NCBI GenBank assembly: GCA_014905635.1
Contig: JABVCE010000003.1
Coordinates: forward strand, 124,001 to 188,000
Source of the DNA: Scenedesmus sp. PABB004
Taxonomy: Eukaryota
Reading direction: 5' to 3'
DNA: 64,000 nucleotides
How positions within the stretch are numbered: position 1 is the first letter of the stretch; every line of letters begins with the position of its first letter. Under the pieces are notes generated by a model, which did not search any database, was not told where the DNA came from, and saw nothing but the letters and a program-made list of their open reading frames with translations. Positions 1,306-46,116 of this stretch are shown piece after piece. The position numbers and the translations under genes are program-made.

Positions 1306-1336
1306 CCTCGCCAGGGCAAAAGGCAAAAGCACCAGG

Positions 1337-1337
<1 letters not shown>

Positions 1338-1367
<30 letters not shown>

Positions 1368-1488
1368 TCACCGCCAACCACCGGGGTGGTGTGCGTATAG
1401 TCTGATTGCACAGACAGATTCAATGAGCTCACACGGTAGAATCACGCGGTGAGCAGGATTTGAACCTGCGCGGGAACTCCCAATTGAT
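1338..1488 (-). tRNA. Circularly permuted tRNA-Ser(AGA), copy 1: 3' half 1488-1445, 70-nt intervening sequence, 5' half 1374-1338
   Basis: Both tRNA halves are the exact reverse complement of those at 6243-6393. TATATAA lies at 1537-1531 and a T4 terminator at 1328-1325 on the minus strand. Confidence 0.88.
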
Positions 1489-1827
1489 CGCATGCCGGTG
1501 CATGGGTGCGTCCGAAATCATCGACTTAAATTATATACGCTTGATGTCTAATGTTTTTGGAGCCGTTTTTCTCCCCGACCGCGGCGATTTCGGCCCGGGA
1601 AAAACGCCCAGTCACATCAGGGTCCATCGATCTTTCACCTCAGCCCGGGCGAAAAACGAACTCAAACAAAAAAGCGCACACGTCAGACCCACCCCTCCAC
1701 CCGCGCGTGCGCGCGGCCGGCCGGCCCGCGCGCGCCAGGCGCGCCCGCCCACGTGCCTCCAGCACCACCCGGCTGCTGCCGCCGGTGGACAGCGCGCCGG
1801 GGCTGCAGCTGCGCACCCTCAGCGGCA

Positions 1828-5057: not shown

Positions 5058-6193
5058 GCGGGCTGAGGGCTGCCGTGCGGTGCAGGGCGCCTCGCTGAAC
5101 GCCGCTGCACCGAAGGCGCTGCTGGCGGGCAGCCCCGCCTCTGGTGGCGCCCGCATCGCGTTCCTGACGCGTGCCAGAGCGCCTGAGACGACTGGTACGC
5201 CTCGGCGGACGGCGCACGGACCGGCGGCACGAGGTCAACGACACCGCCTCGGCGGCCTTTGCGATGCGCCGCCCAACGCGAAGTGCGCAGCAGCCCTCTG
5301 TCACGCTGCGGCAGCGGCAATACCATCTGCGGGTAGCCGCGGCCCGCCGCGAAAACCCTGCGCCGCCCGACGGCCGTTTTGACGTGCGGGCGCTCTAGCA
5401 GAGCGCTGCCGCCGCCGGCGGCTCGCACAGCGCCCCCACAGCGGCGGCTCGCGCAGCGCCCCCACTCCCCTCCTCCCCGCCCCAGCCGTCAGGCGAGGCC
5501 ATTAGCGTGCGCCGGCTGACGGCAGCCTCAGGTGTGCGCGACGCTGCCGCGCCGCCAGGTGAGCGGGGGTGCTTTGGCAAGGGTCCTGAGCGCACACGTT
5601 GCTGCAGCCGCCGGCAGCGCCGAGCGCAGAGTCAGCGCTTGCGGCGCCGCTGACGCGCCTCGCGCCGACCTGCCGCCTGGCGCCGCGTGCCCCTGCTCCC
5701 TCCCTTGCGCCCCAGCAGCCTCGCCTCCCGCGGCATCCATCGTCTCTGCAGCCGCCATGGCGGCGCAGCGCAGCGCGGCGCAGCAGGCAGCGTTTGCGCA
5801 CATGTCGCTGGAGGCGGTGCTGTCCACGGCCAAGCGGCAGCGGCCGGCGGGTCTCGGCGGCGCGCGGCGCGGCGCCGGAGAGCCGGGGACGGCGCCCGAG
5901 TGATGCCGCTGAGGGTGCGCAGCTGCAGCCCCGGCGCGCTGTCCACCGGCGGCAGCAGCCGGGTGGTGCTGGAGGCACGTGGGCGGGCGCGCCTGGCGCG
6001 CGCGGGCCGGCCGGCCGCGCGCACGCGCGGGTGGAGGGGTGGGTCTGACGTGTGCGCTTTTTTGTTTGAGTTCGTTTTTCGCCCGGGCTGAGGTGAAAGA
6101 TCGATGGACCCTGATGTGACTGGGCGTTTTTCCCGGGCCGAAATCGCCGCGGTCGGGGAGAAAAACGGCTCCAAAAACATTAGACATCAAGCG

Positions 6194-6200
6194 TATATAA
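6194..6200 (+). promoter_or_regulatory. TATA box upstream of the permuted tRNA leader
   Basis: TATATAA in an otherwise very GC-rich sequence, about 30 nt upstream of the pairing leader (6230-6242). Confidence 0.65.
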
Positions 6201-6242
6201 TTTAAGTCGATGATTTCGGACGCACCCATGCACCGGCATGCG

Positions 6243-6363
6243 ATCAATTGGGAGTTCCCGCGCAGGTTCAAATCCTGCTCACCGCGTGATTCTACCGTGT
6301 GAGCTCATTGAATCTGTCTGTGCAAACAGACTATACGCACACCACCCCGGTGGTTGGCGGTGA

Positions 6364-6393
<30 letters not shown>
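6243..6393 (+). tRNA. Circularly permuted tRNA-Ser(AGA), copy 2: 3' half (nt 38-73) at 6243-6286, intervening 6287-6356, 5' half (nt 1-37) at 6357-6393
   Basis: 5' half: GCGGTGA-TG-GCCGAGCGGTTAAGGC-G-ATTGA-CT-AGA-A. 3' half: A-TCAAT-TGGGAGTTCCCGC-GCAGG-TTCAAAT-CCTGC-TCACCGC-G. The acceptor stem (GCGGTGA/TCACCGC), anticodon stem (ATTGA/TCAAT) and T stem pair perfectly. Long Ser-type variable arm and G73 discriminator are present. Confidence 0.9.
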
Positions 6394-6394
<1 letters not shown>

Positions 6395-6402
6395 CCTGGT
6401 GC

Positions 6403-6413
6403 TTTTGCCTTTT
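6403..6413 (+). terminator. Pol III T-run terminator(s) after the permuted tRNA trailer
   Basis: TTTT at 6403-6406 and again at 6410-6413, directly after the trailer TCCTGGTGC. Confidence 0.6.
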
Positions 6414-6794
6414 GCCCTGGCACGCCTGCACGCCTGGGCCCACCCCGCGGCGGTGGAGAGGTTACAGGCGCGCCTGCAGGCGCTGGGGCCCCGCGCTGCT
6501 TATTGCTGCCGGCCCCGCCGCGCACGCCGCCCCGCGATGATGCCCAAAACTGCCGCTGCGCGGCCGCCAAACGCGCGGCGCCGCCGCGCATTCTCACACG
6601 CACACACCGGCTGCCCCGCGCAGCCGGCAACTCCAGCCGGCCGGGCAGCCGCCGCTACTGAACACGCCGCCCCCCCCCCCCCCCCCCCCCCCCGCGGCGG
6701 CGGACGCACTCGCTCTCGCTCGCGCCGCATGCGCGCCGCCGCCGCCGCCCCGCCCCGCCCCCGCCAGCCCCGTTGCTGCGCGGGCGCGCGGCGC

Positions 6795-17708: not shown

Positions 17709-18067
17709 GGCTGTGCCGGCGAGCGCTGCTCGCTGCGCTTGTGGGCAGCGGCGACCGGCGCCGCCGAGAGTCACCAGGCGGGCAGGGCGTGGGCCACAGT
17801 GCGCGGGAGACTGTGTCGTCAACGAGCTGCGGGGGAGAGCAAGCTCTGCTGAAGCGCGACCGCCAGGCTGCCGGCGGACGGCGGCGTCTTGCGCAGCGGC
17901 GCGGCGCGCACGCGCCAGAGCCCGCCGCGCCTCTGGACGACGCACGGCGCTTTGATCCTGCCGCCGTGCCCCCGCACTCGGCGCCCGCGCCCCCGCCTCG
18001 CCGGCGGCCGGCCGGCAGCAGCGGCAGCGCGCGGCGCCGGCGCCGCGCGCCGCCGCGTGCTTGCTTG

Positions 18068-18452
18068 ATGCCGGGCGCGCAGCAGGGCTCCAGCTCGGAC
18101 CGGTACATGCGCGCCTTCGCAGCCAGCCTGGCCGCCTGCTCCGCGCAGGCGCGCGGGGGGCGGCACCGGCAGCGCTGCTGCCGCACGCCGCTCCGCCGGC
18201 CGGCGGCGGCCCGGCCAACACCGCAGCCGCGCCGCGCCGCCGCAGGCGCAAGCGTATGGTGGCTGCCTCTCGGCGCGCCTGCCCGACGTGGAGAAGGGCT
18301 GCTGCCAGCAGGAGTTCCAGGCGCTGCGGCAGTGCTTCTTCAGAGAGGTGCGTGGCCGCGGCCGGGCGAGGGCTCCGCGCCCCGCCGATGGCCGCACCGA
18401 CGGGCTCGCCCGCGCGCCCGCGCCGCAGTTTAAAGCCCGCCGCCGCGGCTGA
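18068..18452 (+). CDS. NDUFAF8: Small twin-CX9C (CHCH) protein, NDUFAF8-like complex I assembly factor; introns 18149-18245 (GC-AG) and 18348-18428
   Basis: Spliced product MPGAQQGSSSDRYMRAFAASLAACSAQAQAYGGCLSARLPDVEKGCCQQEFQALRQCFFREFKARRRG* has two CX9C motifs. It is not present as a single ORF in the track. Confidence 0.72.
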
Positions 18453-18531
18453 GGCGGCGCCGGCGGCGCAGTCAGGCGGGCGCGCCTGCGCGGCGGAGGC
18501 AGCAGCAGCAGCAGCAGCAATACTTGGTCCA

Positions 18532-19725
18532 ATGACCAAGTTCAAGCGCCCGCTGGTGCCGGGCGCCTACCTCACCGCCGCAGACATGCTGGCGCTGCTG
18601 GCGGAGCAGCGCCTCGCCGCGGCTGCGCTGCCCGACGGCACGGTCGCGCTGGCCGCGCACCCCGCGGTGGCGTGGCTGCTGGACAGCTGCTGCGTCGGCC
18701 GCGGGGCGCAGAGCCGCGACGACGGCGGCGGCGGCGGCGGTGGGGAGGACGACGAGGGCGGCGAGGGCGGCGAGGGCGGCAGCGCCGCAGCGCCGCCGCA
18801 GCAGCCGCCGCAGCTTGAGCTGGTGACGGCGGCGGCGGGCGTGAACGCCGCGTGCCCCGAGCTGCAGGCGCAGTTTGAGGAGCACCTGCGGCAGGAGCTG
18901 CAGCGCCAGCAGCGCCGGGGCCGGCGGGGCAAACCCGCGCCCCAGCCGGGCGGCAGCGCCGCCGGCGCGCAGGGCGCAGGCGCGGGCGCCGACGGCGCTG
19001 GGGGAGGCGCAGTCCTGCTCGGGGAGCCGCCGCCGACCGACGGCGCGGCGGCAGCCGCCGGGCCAGGGGCCCAGGCGCCGGGCTTGGTCCCCCGCGAGCA
19101 GCCGCAGCAGGCACCCGGGAGCAGCGGCGCGGAGGTGCAGCTGGTGCGGCTGTCGCTGCCAGAGGCCTTCTTCCTGGCTCACGTGCTGGGCAGCTGCAGC
19201 GTGACCCCGGCGCCCGCTGCGCCCGGCGGCGGCGGCGCGCTCGGCGCGGGCGCGCTGTGGGGCTGGTGCTGCGCCGCGGCGCCGGGCGGCGCGGCCGCGT
19301 TTGCGACGCGCTTCGCGGCGTACCGCCACTTCCGGGCCAAGGGCTGGCTGCCGCTGCCGGGCCTGCCCTACGGCGGCGACTACGTGCTGTACGCGCTGCA
19401 CCCCGCGCTCGCGCACTCGGAGTTTGTCGTCACCGTCATGCTCGAGACCGCGCCCGCCGCGCTGCCCGCCGCGCCGGCGGCCGCCGGCGGCGCGGGCACG
19501 CCGGACGGCGCGCCGGCGCCGTCGCTCGCGTGGCTGGACGCGCACATCATGCAGCGCCTCGCGCGGCAGGTGCTCAAGCAGCTGCTGCTGCTCTACGTCG
19601 TCGCGCCGCCGGGGCTGAGCTTTGACCGCCCCGACTGCGTTGACCGCCTGGCGGTGCGGGAGGTGCTTGTGTCGCGCTGGGTGCCGTCCGAGCACCGCGA
19701 GGAGGCGCGGCGGCCGGGCGGGTGA
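18532..19725 (+). CDS. SEN2: tRNA-splicing endonuclease catalytic subunit (SEN2-like), intronless
   Basis: LSLPEAFFLAHVLG, FATRFAAYRHFRAKGWLPLPGLPYGGDYVLYALHPALAHSEFVV, RLARQVLKQLLLLYV and VREVLVSRWVP. The candidate Tyr/His/Lys catalytic triad is present. Confidence 0.87.
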   Translation: MTKFKRPLVPGAYLTAADMLALLAEQRLAAAALPDGTVALAAHPAVAWLLDSCCVGRGAQSRDDGGGGGGGEDDEGGEGGEGGSAAAPPQQPPQLELVTAAAGVNAACPELQAQFEEHLRQELQRQQRRGRRGKPAPQPGGSAAGAQGAGAGADGAGGGAVLLGEPPPTDGAAAAAGPGAQAPGLVPREQPQQAPGSSGAEVQLVRLSLPEAFFLAHVLGSCSVTPAPAAPGGGGALGAGALWGWCCAAAPGGAAAFATRFAAYRHFRAKGWLPLPGLPYGGDYVLYALHPALAHSEFVVTVMLETAPAALPAAPAAAGGAGTPDGAPAPSLAWLDAHIMQRLARQVLKQLLLLYVVAPPGLSFDRPDCVDRLAVREVLVSRWVPSEHREEARRPGG

Positions 19726-21695: not shown

Positions 21696-23391
21696 TCACT
21701 TGGGCTTGCGGCCGGTGTTGATCCACGTCATCATGCGCTTCCCCCGCGCGCCCAGCCTGCAGCGCGGCTTGGGCAGGCGGTGGCCCGGGCGGAACGCCTT
21801 GTCAGCAAAGAGCTTCCGGTACTCTGCGCAGCTGTGCACGCCGTCGTCTGCGCGGCGGCGGCGGGGCGGCGTGTGCGGGCGCGCGTGAGTGAGTTCAGGC
21901 GTCACATCCCGCCGCGAGCCTGCTGCCGCTGCGCCACGTCGCGAGCTGCTGCTGTTGTTGTTGCTGCGGCCGGAGCCATGGCCACGGGCGGCGCCCGCCC
22001 GCGGCCCGCGCACGCGCCGTTGTGGTCGATGTGATCCAGGATTGCGCCCGCAAAAGTAAAGCCGACAAAGCCTCCCCCGCCGTCGGTGCGGTCGCCCTCG
22101 AAGCCGCCGTCACAGAAGGTTTGACTCAGCAGCCGCGCAAACTCGCCGACGGCCAGGCCGAGCACATCGTCCTTGTCAGCACACGCTGACTCGCCCGCTG
22201 GCGCCGGGCTGGTGCCGGCGGGCGCGGACCTGCTGCGTGACAGGCCGTACGTGCGGACGCAGGGCGCGCAGCCGCCGCTCGTGTTGCTGTGGGGCGAGCG
22301 CAGGGCGTTGGCGCGGGGCGGGGGGCGAGTCAGAGGGGGCCAACAAGGGTGGCGGGAGCTGCAGCACACACACAGCGCCAAACCCAGGCGGCAGGCGCAC
22401 TCACGCGTCGTTGCAGGGCTCAGGACACCCCTCGTCCATCCTGCCCGTGTTGCTGCGCAGGGGGCAGGCGAAGGCGGGCAGGTGGGCGGCGAGGGCAGCC
22501 GGCCTGCAAGCTGCGCTCCCGCGCGCGGCCGCGCCCCTGTGCGGCAACGGGCGCAGCGCAACGCGCGCCCACCTCAGGCAGTGGGCGTCCTTTCCGCCGT
22601 TGTCGCACGAGGGCTGGCCCTGCGCACGCGGGCGGCGGCGGCGGGTCACGGGCGGGGCGGCCGCGTCCCGCGCGACCGGTCGCGCTCGCGGCCGGCCACG
22701 CATGCTTTTCCCAGGCTGCAGGCACGCACGCACCCCGGGGCCGTAGACCGTCTTTTTCAGGATCGTGTCGTACATCGTCCAGTTTTGGCCGCAGCTCCCG
22801 CAGGGCTGGCAGTCGTGGCCCCTGCGGCGGCACGGCGCGCGCGGCGCGCGCGGCGCGGGCGCCCTCAGCGCTGCGCGCGGCGAGCTGGGGGCGGCCGCAC
22901 GCCCGACTGCCGGCTCACGCTGCGTTGCAGTCTGCGCGGCCGGTCGGTCGTTCATGCGAGCAGGCGTGGCGCGGGCGGCGCGGGCGGCGCCTGAGCAGGC
23001 GCGGCGGGCGGCCTGCCCGCACCGCGGCGTGCGCGCGCCGCGCGCTGCGCACATGCCACGTAGAGGTTGCCGTGGAGGCCCTTCAGCCACCCGCTGTTGT
23101 TGGTGTCGCCCTCAAAGTCGTAGACGTTGCCTGCACCGCGGCCAGCAGCAGTGGCGTCGGCGGCGCCAGGCTCCGCGCTGCGCGGCCGCGCCGGCGCCGC
23201 GCACCGTTGCACTTGTCGTAGTCCTCGGACCAGAACACGGAAGGCGTATCATCTCTGCCGGTGATGCTGTCAAAGGCGTAACCAACCGCGACGTTGCCGG
23301 GGCAGACGGAGGAGACGGTGATCCAGGCGCGCGCGCGGGGCGCCGCCGGGAGCAGCACCGCGGCGGCGGCAATCAGCAGCAGGCGGCGCAT
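21696..23391 (-). CDS. Putative secreted Cys-rich protein of unknown function, multi-exon
   Basis: Signal-like [23 protein letters not shown]. Exons with coding-like composition (WITVSSVCPGNVAVGYAFD, GHDCQPCGSCGQNWTMYD, DDGVHSCAEYRKLF) are separated by GT-AG introns. Confidence 0.6.
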
Positions 23392-24480: not shown

Positions 24481-24583
24481 GCACTGATGTCCGAGCGGTT
24501 TAAGGAGTTGGACTTGAATGGATTTAACACATCCAAGCGATCCAATGGGAGTTCCCGCGCAGGTTCGAATCCTGCTCAGTGCG
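24481..24583 (+). tRNA. tRNA-Ser(TGA) with a 21-nt canonical 37/38 intron (24519-24539)
   Basis: Acceptor stem GCACTGA/TCAGTGC, anticodon stem TTGGA/TCCAA, anticodon TGA at 24515-24517, variable arm GGGAGTTCCC, GGTTCGAATCC, G73, and downstream TTTT. Confidence 0.93.
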
Positions 24584-39644: not shown

Positions 39645-42252
39645 ATGCAGCTCCAGCGCTGCCTGGCGGCCAGGCTGCCGCGCCTGGCCCGGGCGGCGCT
39701 GGCCGGCGCGCCCGGCGCCCCCGGCGGCGCGGCCGCAGCAGCAGCGGCGCACGCGCGCGCGGGCGGAGGCGGCGGCGGAGGCGGCGGCGCCGGCGGCGGC
39801 GCGCAGGCGGCGGGCCGCTGGTGGACGGCGGCGGCGGGCGCGGCCGGGCTCGCCGCCGCCGCCGCGTGGGCGCCGCCCGCCGCCGCGGCCGACGCGGGCG
39901 CGCCTGCCGCGGGCGCCGCGGCCGACGCGCCCGCGGGTGCGGCGCCGCCGCCCGACGGCAAGCTGCTGCCGCTGTCGACGCGGCGGCGCATCTTTTTCAA
40001 GTACGAGAAGCGCATCCGGGACCGGTCGAGCCTGGAGAAGATCTACGAGTACTTTGCGACGCACGAGCGCCACGGCGTCAAGGTGCCTCGAGAGGGGCAG
40101 GGCGGCCGGGGGCGGGGCGAGCGGCGGGGCGGCGGGGGGCCAACCACGCGCGCGCAGGCGGGCGGGGCGCGCGCGCAGGCGGGCGGGGCGCGCCCGCGCC
40201 GACCGCGCCCGCGCCGCCCGGCCGCGGCGCAGGTCATGTCGGCCGCCGACGTCGTGCGCGCGCTCGTGCACACCTACCCGCCCGCCGGCAGCAGCGTCGA
40301 GCGCGCGGGCTTCCTCGACGGTGCGTGCGCGCGTGCGCGGCGCGCGGCGCCGCGCAGCGCACGGCGCGCGGCCGCACACGGCCGGCGCCCGCGCCGGCGG
40401 CGCCGCGCAGGCGAGCGGTCGCAGCAGGTGGACGCGCCGGGGCGGCGGGACGCGCACCGGGCGCGGAGCCAGCTGCTGCACTTCTTCGACCACAACCAAG
40501 ACGGTGCGCTGCGCTCCTGCGCCGCACGGCACACACGCAAACACGCGCCCACGCGCCCACGCACACGCGCACACACGGCGCGCGCCACGCGCGCCACGCG
40601 CGCCACGCCCCCCCCCCCCCCCCCACCCGCCCAGGCACGATCGACTTCAACGAGTTTGTGCTGATCGTGATCTGCCTCGCCGTCCCCGAGCGCGACGTGG
40701 GCGCCGTGTTTGACTTCATCGACCTCGACAACAACGGCGTCCTCGACGAGGCAGAGTTTGCGCAGGAAAGGCAGCGGCGGGGAGCAGCGGCGGCGGGGAG
40801 CGGCGGCAGGGGGAGCGGCCGGAGGGAGGGAGGGGCGGCGCCGCGCTGTGCGGGGGCCCGGGCCGACGCCGCGGTGCCGGCGGCGCGGCGCGGCGCAGCG
40901 CAGGTGCTGCAGCAGCTGGAGCGGCGCGCCGGCATCCAGGGCACGTTCCACGCGCGCGCCGGCAAGCGGGCGATCGTGGACGAGGACAGCACGTGCGGCC
41001 CGCGCGCGGCGCCCCGGGCCGCGGCGCCCCGCGCGGCGGCGGCCGCGGGGCGCGCGACGCCGCCGCCCCGCCCCGCCCCCGCACTCGTGCGCGCGCGCGC
41101 CAGGGAGCCGGCGGTGCACCGCCTGTTCCTGGACGAGGGCGCCCGGGGCGTCAAGCTGAGCCGCTTCCGGGACTTCCTCGGCCGCCTGCAGGACGGCATG
41201 GTGCGCCTGGAGTTTGACCACTACGACACAGACGGTGCGGCGCGCGGCGCGCGGGCGCTGGGCGCGCGGCGCGCGGCGCGCGGCGCGCGGCGCGGCCCGG
41301 CGGCGGCGCACGGGCGGCGCAGCCCCCCGACGCGCGGCGCGCCCGGCGCGCGCGGCGGGCGCGCAGGCAGCGGGTCGGTGTGCGGCACCGACTTTGCGCA
41401 CAGCCTGGTCACGGCGGCGGACGTGCGGGTGGTCGACGCGTACCTGGACAAGGCGCGCGCCGCCGCCGCGCTTGGCCTGCCAGCCACGCCGGGCCTGGCC
41501 TGCCAGCCGCAGCCAGCGCCGTGGGATCCGCCGCGCACCGCGGCCGCCGCCGCCCGCGCGCCGCGCCGTGCCGCGCAGGTCGAGGCGCTGCCGCCGGCGC
41601 TCGCGCGCGCGCGCGTGAGCCTGAAGGACTTCCAGGCCGTCGCCCACCTGCGCCGCCACGTGCGCGACATCTCGTTCGCCCTCGACTTCTGCTCCCAGGC
41701 GCGACGCGCTGCCGGCTCCGCGCGCGGCCCGCTTGCGCCGCCGCGCCGCCGCGCGGCCCGCTTGCGCCGCCGCGCCGCCGCGCGGCCGCGCCGCGCGCGC
41801 GCCGAGGCCGAGCCGTTCCTCCCTGCGGCCGCCGCGCAGATCGAGCGCCCGCTGCCGCGCGCCGAGTTTGCCAAGCTGCTGTCCAAGGCCCTGGGCGGGC
41901 TGCGCCTCGCGCCGAGCGTGGTGGAGATCATCTACGCGCTCTTTGGCGACGAGGCCGGCAGCCTCGACGGCCCCGCGCTCGTCAGCGCGCTCAAGCGCCG
42001 CAACTACGTGCCCGGCTACAAGGCGCGCACAGCGCGCCCCCAGCGTGCGCTGCGCGCGCCCGCCCGCCCGCGGGGCGCTGCCAGCCGCGCCGCCCTCCAC
42101 CACCGCCGCCGCGTCCGCGCGCCGCCGCCGGCGCCGTCGCGCAGAAGGGGCAGGGCGTGTCGGTGGAGGAGGACTCGGAGCACACGCCGGTGCTCAACTG
42201 GATGCGCTGCGTGCGCAGCTGCACGTTCGGCGGCGAGACGGCGAGCCGCTGA
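39645..42252 (+). CDS. MICU: Mitochondrial calcium uptake protein (MICU-like, EF-hand), multi-exon
   Basis: RRRIFFKYEKRIRDRSSLEKIYEYFAT, MSAADVVRALV, and EF-hands DHNQDGTIDFNEF and DLDNNGVLDEAEF. Confidence 0.88.
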
Positions 42253-44747: not shown

Positions 44748-46116
44748 ATGTTCACGGCACGCAAGAAGATCGTGAAGGAGAAGGGCGCGGAGCCCGATGA
44801 CTTCGAGGAGGCGGTGGCCCAGGTGCGGCGCGCGGCGCGCGGCCGCGGCCGGCGCGCCGATCGCGGCGCGGCGCGGCGCGATCCGAGCGCGGCGCCGCGC
44901 CCTGCGCAGGCCCTGTTCGACCTGGAGGCCACCAACAACGAGCTGAAGGCGGACCTGCGCGACCTGTACATCACGGCGGCCAAGGAGGTGGACGTGTCCT
45001 CCCGCAAGGCCATCATCGTGCACGTGAGCGCGCGGCCCGCCCGCCGGCCGCGCATGCGGGCGCGCGCACCGGGCGGCCAGCGGCGCCAGCGGCGCCAGCG
45101 GCGCCAGCAAAGGGGAGGGAGGGGTCGGAGGCGGCAGCGGCGCGGCGGCTGCGACAGCGGCGGCGACCGCAGCGGCAGCAGCGACAGCGGCGGCTGTGGC
45201 AACGACAGCGGCGCCAGCAGCCTGGCCGGAGGAGCACGGACGCTGGCGGCTGGCGCGGAGCGGCAGCCTCTGGGAGCAGCAGCAGCCGGCAGCCGTGTGC
45301 GGCCGTGACGCTGGCAGCCAGCGCGCCGGCGCGGGCAGGTCGGCGCCTCGCGCGCGCGCCGCGGCAGCGTCGCCGCCGTCGCTGCCGCTGTGGAGCAGCA
45401 GCAGTGCAGGCCAGCGGGCCAGGGGCGCTGGCGGCACAGCAGCCAGGGGGGGGGGGGGTAGGCGCTGCGCTCGGGCGAGCGCGCGCGGGCGTTGCGAGCA
45501 GCGCCGTGCGGCAGCGCCGCGCGCAACGCCACATGCGCAGGCGCCCGCGCCTGCCCCTCCTCACGCCCCCCCCCCCTCCCGCTCCCCCTCCCGCGCAGGT
45601 GCCGTTCCGCCTGCTCAAGAACTTCCACAAGATCCAGCAGCGCCTGGTGCGCGAGCTGGAGAAGAAGTTCAGCGGCAAGGACGTCGTCGTCGTCGCCAAC
45701 CGCCGCATCATGCCGCCGCCGACCAGCGGCAAGTCCAACGCGCGCCCGCGCAGCCGCACGCTCACGGCGGTGAGTGCGCCGCGCGCGGCGGGCGCGGCGG
45801 CCGCCCGGGGCGGCGGCGGCAGCAGCGGCGCGCCGCGCCGCGCCGCGCCGTGCCGCGCCGGCGCCGCGGGCGCTCACGCGCCGCGCCGCGCCGCACGCAG
45901 GTGCACGACGCCATCCTGGACGACTTGGTATACCCCACGGAGATTGTGGGCAAGCGCACGCGCTACAGGCTCGACGGCTCCAAGGTCCTCAAGGTCTTCC
46001 TCGACCCCAAGGACCGCAACACCACCGAGTACAAGCTGGAGACCTTCGCCGGCGTGTACAAGAAGCTGACCGGCAAGGACGTGGTGTTCGAGTTCCCCGT
46101 GCAGGAGGCGGCCTGA
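44748..46116 (+). CDS. RPS7: 40S ribosomal protein S7 (eS7), 4 coding exons
   Basis: [87 protein letters not shown]. Confidence 0.98.

Follow-up and report, generated by a model that had tools for sequence, protein, structure and literature searches.

In circularly permuted tRNA genes, the tRNA's 3' half lies upstream of the 5' half. The 2014 review by Soma lists 34 such genes, with intervening sequences of 1-74 bp (PMC3978253). The published genes have a TATA-like element upstream and a T stretch downstream, with the A and B boxes in reversed order (PMC3978253). The maturation pathway has been shown experimentally in Cyanidioschyzon merolae, with a circular intermediate and an aminoacylated product (Soma et al. 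2007, as reported in the review, PMC3978253). For Micromonas pusilla, Table 1 of the same review enters a type II permuted gene for tRNA-Ser(AGA) after Maruyama et al. 2010, with 64 bp between the halves (PMC3978253). Chlamydomonas reinhardtii, a chlorophycean, has no permuted tRNA genes according to the review (PMC3978253). In Auxenochlorella (Trebouxiophyceae, a core chlorophyte), a 2025 preprint reports that the tRNAscan-SE set was incomplete and that permuted genes filled it (PMC12633428).

The locus described here lies in 64 kb of algal DNA (the window, that is, the whole stretch that was analysed). With a probability of roughly 80%, we read it as a genuine nuclear gene for tRNA-Ser(AGA) that is circularly permuted (type II, break at 37/38) and present twice, in a very GC-rich freshwater green alga of the class Chlorophyceae. 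Judged by its sequence, the gene is probably functional. The features are collected in Table 1.

Table 1. Coordinates of the two permuted units, the inverted repeat that carries them and the related genes in the window
Feature	Position	Strand	Remarks
Copy A, TATATAA, putative upstream Pol III (TFIIIB/TBP) promoter	6194-6200	+	ends 29 nt before the leader helix; lies in an AT-rich stretch
Copy A, leader: helix strand GCACCGG (6230-6236), then CATGCG (6237-6242)	6230-6242	+	predicted cut 6242/6243
Copy A, 3' half of tRNA-Ser(AGA), nt 38-73, with B box/T arm	6243-6286	+	44 nt; read directly; ARAGORN on joined halves; Rfam sees the T arm only
Copy A, intervening sequence, from 3' end to 5' end of the acceptor stem	6287-6356	+	70 nt; no TTTT inside; would be removed by RNase P and tRNase Z
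Copy A, 5' half of tRNA-Ser(AGA), nt 1-37, with A box/D arm	6357-6393	+	37 nt; anticodon AGA at 6390-6392; read directly; ARAGORN on joined halves
Copy A, trailer: TC, then helix strand CTGGTGC (6396-6402)	6394-6402	+	pairs with leader; predicted cut 6393/6394
Copy A, two T4 runs, putative Pol III terminator	6403-6406, 6410-6413	+	directly after the trailer helix
Copy B, whole permuted unit	1318-1537	-	found by T-arm/acceptor scan
Copy B, TATATAA	1537-1531	-	
Copy B, leader helix	1501-1495	-	
Copy B, 3' half	1488-1445	-	
Copy B, intervening sequence	1444-1375	-	
Copy B, 5' half	1374-1338	-	
Copy B, trailer helix	1335-1329	-	
Copy B, T4 runs	1328-1325, 1321-1318	-	
Inverted-repeat arms	5515-6723 (copy A), 1045-2221 (copy B)	.	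1209-nt alignment, 96% identity including a 36-nt indel
Sen2-type tRNA-splicing endonuclease catalytic domain	about 19150-19725, in ORF 17956-19725	+	Pfam tRNA_int_endo 5e-13; PDB human TSEN2 1.4e-17
Collinear tRNA-Ser(UGA), canonical 37/38 intron of 21 nt at 24519-24539	24481-24583	+	sole Rfam tRNA match in the window, 48.8 bits

The window is 78% GC (75-81% in every 4-kb bin), which is extreme for a eukaryote. It holds 142 stop-free frames of at least 250 aa, so that lists of open reading frames are meaningless here. The genes recognised by Pfam are eukaryotic and plastid-related and are split over several frames; they include FtsH, ribosomal protein S7e and Mg-protoporphyrin methyltransferase, among others. 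An FtsH exon is 70-77% identical to proteins of Tetradesmus, Scenedesmus, Raphidocelis and Monoraphidium (Sphaeropleales), 68-70% to those of Chlamydomonadales (volvocine algae, Chlamydomonas) and 62-64% to those of Trebouxiophyceae. From the similarity of this single marker we read the host as a chlorophycean near the Sphaeropleales, in line with the core-chlorophyte host proposed in an earlier note on this DNA. We take the DNA to be nuclear.

The 3' half of copy A opens with A38 and the anticodon-stem 3' strand TCAAT. A 13-nt variable arm (TGGGAGTTCCCGC) and the T arm GCAGG-TTCAAAT-CCTGC come next, and TCACCGC of the acceptor stem leads up to the discriminator G73. CCA is absent from the gene sequence, with TGA following G6286. 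The 5' half opens with the acceptor strand GCGGTGA and U8, followed by the D arm (GCC/GGC) with A14 and G18G19, the anticodon-stem strand ATTGA and the loop sequence CTAGAA, which contains U33 and ends at A37. The order on the one strand is thus 3' half, 70 nt, 5' half, and the break falls exactly at 37/38. When the halves are joined (6357-6393 + 6243-6286), ARAGORN calls an 81-nt tRNA-Ser(aga) in which the acceptor, anticodon and T stems are perfect. The joined molecule carries the complete set of eukaryotic tRNA consensus elements (U8, A14, G18G19, U33, T54T55C56, G73 and the long variable arm). The earlier note had proposed a permuted Ser(AGA) gene with these same two halves, this break and pairing stems; direct reading and the ARAGORN call on the joined halves agree with it in every position.

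The unit is bracketed by what would be predicted to be transcription signals. TATATAA occurs once per strand in the 64-kb window, each time at a permuted copy. Only three stretches of the window have a GC content of 0.45 or less over 60 nt; one lies upstream of each copy, and the third is the tRNA-Ser(UGA) locus. TTTT is absent between 6129 and 6402, and none lies inside the copy A unit. The TATATAA had been placed about 30 nt upstream of the leader, with T4 runs trailing the unit; the distance is 29 nt, and the runs start at 6403 and 6410. At the level of sequence, the signals of copy A match the published pattern of permuted genes. The collinear tRNA-Ser(UGA) has the normal order of halves followed by a T run of the CTTTTGC type, with no TATATAA upstream. 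A strong TATA on the permuted gene and not on the collinear one would fit a switch from internal to upstream promoter control.

Leader and trailer can form seven contiguous base pairs, one of them G-U, in the expected register (6230-6236 with 6396-6402), as the earlier note had it. A contiguous helix of at least 7 bp at a fixed register (three offsets tried) was found in 0.99% of 20,000 genomic control pairs. This fixed-register comparison is the informative one; duplex energy in any register is not distinctive in a genome as GC-rich as this one, and by that measure the leader/trailer duplex is not unusual for the genome (67% of genomic pairs are equally stable). At the junction, C32 can pair with G(-3) and G35 with C(-6), both partners sitting in the leader stretch CATGCG, with U33/U(-4) and A34/A(-5) mismatched (by inspection). 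The central helix of the bulge-helix-bulge (BHB) motif therefore has two of four pairs, with a 5'-side bulge of 4 nt instead of 3. In the junction energy model, the two outer helices alone give -13.4 kcal/mol; forcing the two central pairs raises this to -9.3, whereas another inner pairing gives -14.1. Of the relaxed BHB with two central mismatches put forward earlier, the pairs and mismatches are as described and 'relaxed' is an apt word, but the energy model does not support the central helix. Also counting against the reading, the unconstrained fold of the copy A precursor (-71.5) differs from the cloverleaf fold (-62.3). As the central helix is poor, the endonuclease would have to find its substrate by the mature domain together with C32:G(-3), the anticodon-intron pair. 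The review describes such recognition for enzymes of eukaryotes and for green-algal hBH junctions (PMC3978253).

We infer all RNA steps of the pathway from the C. merolae and Mamiellophyceae precedents. Pol III would start about 25-30 nt after TATATAA, near 6225-6230, and stop at the T4 runs (6403-6413), yielding a single RNA that spans the leader, the 3' half, the 70-nt intervening sequence, the 5' half and the trailer. The halves would fold as a cloverleaf whose acceptor stem is capped by the intervening sequence, and the 7-bp leader/trailer helix would extend the anticodon arm as a 37/38 intron does. The tRNA-splicing endonuclease would cut at 6393/6394 and 6242/6243, recognising the mature domain and C32:G(-3), and tRNA ligase would join A37 to A38 to give a circle. 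RNase P and tRNase Z would then excise the intervening sequence, CCA would be added and A34 converted to inosine. The mature tRNA would be expected to read UCC (and UCU).

Demand for such a tRNA can be gauged from the coding sequences of the window. In 894 Pfam-supported codons, GC3 is 97.4%, and the 52 serine codons are AGC (34), TCC (9) and TCG (9), with no other serine codon. Eukaryotes decode UCC with the inosine form of tRNA-Ser(AGA). Since UCC is in use, a working Ser(AGA) gene is needed. The window also encodes a Sen2-type catalytic domain, and the best solved structural relatives of this tRNA_int_endo domain are Sen2 subunits. The location of this gene 13 kb from the permuted tRNA genes is probably coincidental.

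Standard tRNA searches do not see the permuted gene in place, as had been predicted. ARAGORN on the window gives 3 calls by default and 11 in intron mode, none at the permuted locus. With Rfam, the gathering score and E <= 1 alike yield a single tRNA match in the window, away from this locus; local cmscan at the locus finds the T arm only (14.4 bits). The three default ARAGORN calls (Ala-cgc at 22763-22860, '???' at 40875-40965 and Ser-gct at 45781-45858) have no Rfam tRNA support at E <= 1 and are probably GC-rich false positives. The collinear Ser(UGA) gene is itself missed by the default mode and mislabelled by the intron mode as tRNA-Val(aac) with a 10-nt intron. Without a permutation-aware search, standard annotation would show no Ser(AGA) for the alga, and by implication no means of decoding UCC. 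In practice, this is a caution to heed in annotating the GC-rich genomes of algae, many of which are new.

A pattern of T arm followed by D arm occurs twice in the window, and none of 100 shuffled sequences had any match. The strict scan for a T arm with acceptor strand followed by the complementary acceptor strand returned three rows, namely the two copies and an alternative acceptor partner at 6450 for the copy A T arm. A relaxed scan of the window for further permuted tRNA genes returned only the two known copies. The sequence at 6450 (GCGGTGG...GGTTACAGGCG) was considered as a degenerate extra 5' half and rejected; its local alignment score is 18, as compared to a shuffled median of 17 and a 95th percentile of 21.

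Copy B, which the earlier note did not mention, differs from copy A by one base across the unit, located in the intervening sequence (A6326 in copy A, T in copy B). The two copies lie in an inverted repeat made up of blocks I1 (839 nt, about 100% identical), I2 (238 nt, 99%) and I3 (67 nt, 94%). As the repeat is almost identical, the duplication is young, and the second copy is not independent evidence of selection. The repeat (about 1.2 kb) encloses 3.3 kb without a Pfam match. Each arm contains a run of more than 20 G/C (about 1078-1101 and 6673-6700). At 6655-6723 the arm shares sequence with the open frame that has the FtsH matches, at the frame's low-coordinate (3') end.

The collinear tRNA-Ser(UGA) offers a direct comparison. 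The joined Ser(AGA) and the spliced Ser(UGA) are identical at 69 of 82 positions, including the whole variable arm. The differences in the stems are all compensatory double changes, at 3:70 and 4:69 of the acceptor stem, 27:43 and 29:41 of the anticodon stem and 10:25 of the D stem. The compensated acceptor and anticodon pairs span the two separated halves, which argues that the halves evolved as one tRNA. The intron of Ser(UGA) can form a textbook BHB by inspection, with a C32-G35 helix of four perfect pairs and 3-nt bulges that hold both cut sites. The end of the permuted leader (CATGCG) resembles the end of this intron (CAAGCG), and blastn aligns 6237-6281 with 24534-24578 at 91%, a match that begins 6 nt ahead of the 3' half. 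The permuted-gene trailer starts with T, as does the intron. A tandem-duplication model for the origin of permuted tRNA genes is discussed in the review (PMC3978253), and the likeness of leader and intron end together with the shared initial T is what this model would lead one to expect. From these similarities, the probable source of the permuted gene is a Ser gene with an intron that had been duplicated in tandem; the leader and trailer would then be what is left of the old intron at its two ends. A permuted and a collinear Ser gene in one window lend themselves to comparison when the origin of such genes is asked about.

A search of sequencing runs found small shares of the stretch (at most 0.17 of its words), in metagenomes only. 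Two DNA runs (X1 and X2) of one freshwater metagenome study each contain one contig over copy A that is collinear and about 97% identical, covering 5998-6469 (contig of 515 nt with 13 differing letters and 1 gap) and 5998-6540 (contig of 568 nt with 14 differing letters and 1 gap). The order of leader, 3' half, intervening sequence, 5' half and trailer is kept. The arrangement, which the earlier note had suggested looking for in related algae, is therefore present in one relative, seen in two runs of one study. The relative has 12 listed substitutions (6051, 6143, 6152, 6155, 6171, 6188, 6203, 6217, 6334, 6348, 6415 and 6424) and one C inserted after 6344; further differences without a placement number one in the X1 contig and two in the X2 contig. 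Three of the 13 placed differences are in the intervening sequence, and none is in 6230-6286, 6357-6402 or TATATAA. By our own arithmetic, the probability that 0 of 13 events fall in 103 of 472 nt is about 0.04, for one near-identical relative. We regard this conservation of halves and helix as a marginal, suggestive signal of selection. The Ser(UGA) gene of the relative, with the same intron, is on another contig of the same run.

In run X2, one contig of similar depth to the relative's (3.3, as compared to 4.5) has the collinear sequence ...CTAGAAG directly before a stretch identical at 32 of 34 positions to the 3' half (from 6244). This contig may carry an ordinary Ser(AGA) gene, either from the same alga or from a different organism. 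Two RNA runs (X4 and X5) have contigs on the FtsH exons only, with many differences, and are uninformative either way about expression of the tRNA locus. A metagenome scan for T arm-N{60,90}-D arm found no permuted Ser gene among 7 loci, a weak negative that covers intervening sequences of 44-74 nt and exact arms only. Five of the loci (L003-L007) are tandem arrays of collinear Ser genes. The other two (L001, at 1477-1585, and L002, on the minus strand) are near-identical AT-rich contigs with a T arm and the acceptor strand TACGGAG, the complementary CTCCGTA 7 nt after the discriminator and then a D arm. This back-to-front tRNA-like element has a weak Rfam match to YrlA (Y RNA-like; 23.8 bits, E 0.006) and adjoins tRNA-Leu(UAA)/Ile(UAU) arrays with a collinear tRNA-Leu; no decoding tRNA was resolved from it. 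Brute-force rotation of L001 through ARAGORN produced 824 permissive calls and is uninformative.

The strongest alternative is that the locus is a non-functional relic, left when two intron-containing Ser(AGA) genes in tandem lost their outer halves, and silent or transcribed without maturation, while ordinary Ser(AGA) genes elsewhere do the work. Such a relic would account for the poor central BHB helix and for the collinear Ser(AGA)-like contig of run X2, and it would sit easily with the very recent duplication that produced copies A and B. Against it, both halves are intact, with all conserved tRNA positions and perfect stems between the halves, and the changes that compensate relative to Ser(UGA) span both of them. 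The unit, which has no T4 inside, is framed exactly by the promoter-like TATA on one side and the terminators on the other, and none of the placed differences of the relative touches the halves or the helix. In the flanks, no trace of lost outer halves is detectable (best local score 18, against a shuffled median of 17). We consider a relic distinctly unlikely.

Were the halves transcribed separately and joined in trans as in Nanoarchaeum, no circle would form. The leader/trailer helix, whose fold was computed as two strands, could equally unite two transcripts. Against this, the halves are 70 nt apart on one strand with no TATA-like motif or T4 between them; the only TATATAA precedes the 3' half, and no T4 comes until the 5' half has ended. 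All published eukaryotic permuted cases mature via a circle according to the review (PMC3978253), and a split tRNA is very improbable here. That the reversed order is a mis-join or palindromic artefact of assembly is hardly credible: the near-perfect inverted repeat close to the window start is a pattern that long-read artefacts can yield, but short-read contigs of two independent metagenome runs repeat the order over 5998-6469 and 5998-6540 in a slightly diverged relative.

The preferred reading, a permuted tRNA-Ser(AGA) gene that is probably functional, can be set against the described systems. The 70-nt intervening sequence is within the published range of 1-74. The gene of Micromonas pusilla is alike in isoacceptor, in the 37/38 junction, in having no extra intron, in an unusually long intervening sequence (64 bp as compared to 70 nt) and in being a green-algal nuclear gene. 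Its host, however, is a mamiellophyte (prasinophyte) and not a chlorophycean, and the likeness is drawn from the table entry of the review. The genes of C. merolae share the leading 3' half, the upstream TATA-like element, the downstream T stretch, an intervening sequence without signals and a CCA that is not encoded (PMC3978253). They differ in belonging to a red alga, in having junctions at four positions, often with a strict hBHBh' and extra introns, and in the absence of Ser among 11 permuted genes (PMC3978253). The nucleomorph of Bigelowiella natans has permuted Ser(AGA) and Ser(CGA) genes, and its Ser(AGA) is of type II as here and lies in a genome of green-algal descent, but with a 5-bp intervening sequence and in a reduced genome (PMC3978253).

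A bolder reading would make the permuted copies the sole source of tRNA-Ser(IGA) in the alga and the permutation old, shared by descent with the Ser(AGA) genes of M. pusilla and the Bigelowiella nucleomorph. We think this possible but unlikely. If the copies were the sole source, all UCC decoding at 97% GC3 would depend on circularisation. If the permutation were old and shared, its origin would lie near the base of the Chlorophyta, with later reversion or loss in Chlamydomonas. On the bolder reading, moreover, Pol III in Chlorophyceae would be able to transcribe from a TATA element without TFIIIC.

The earlier note knew of no permuted gene described in this intron-rich core-chlorophyte lineage. 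Among the papers listed in literature searches on permuted tRNA genes, we found no report for Chlorophyceae, and to this extent the novelty stands; for core chlorophytes as a whole it does not, as Auxenochlorella was reported in 2025 (PMC12633428). The locus extends a known, rare layout to the Chlorophyceae. Auxenochlorella is a core chlorophyte like the present host but belongs to a different class (PMC12633428), and the two together suggest that the layout is scattered through the core chlorophytes rather than confined to prasinophytes.
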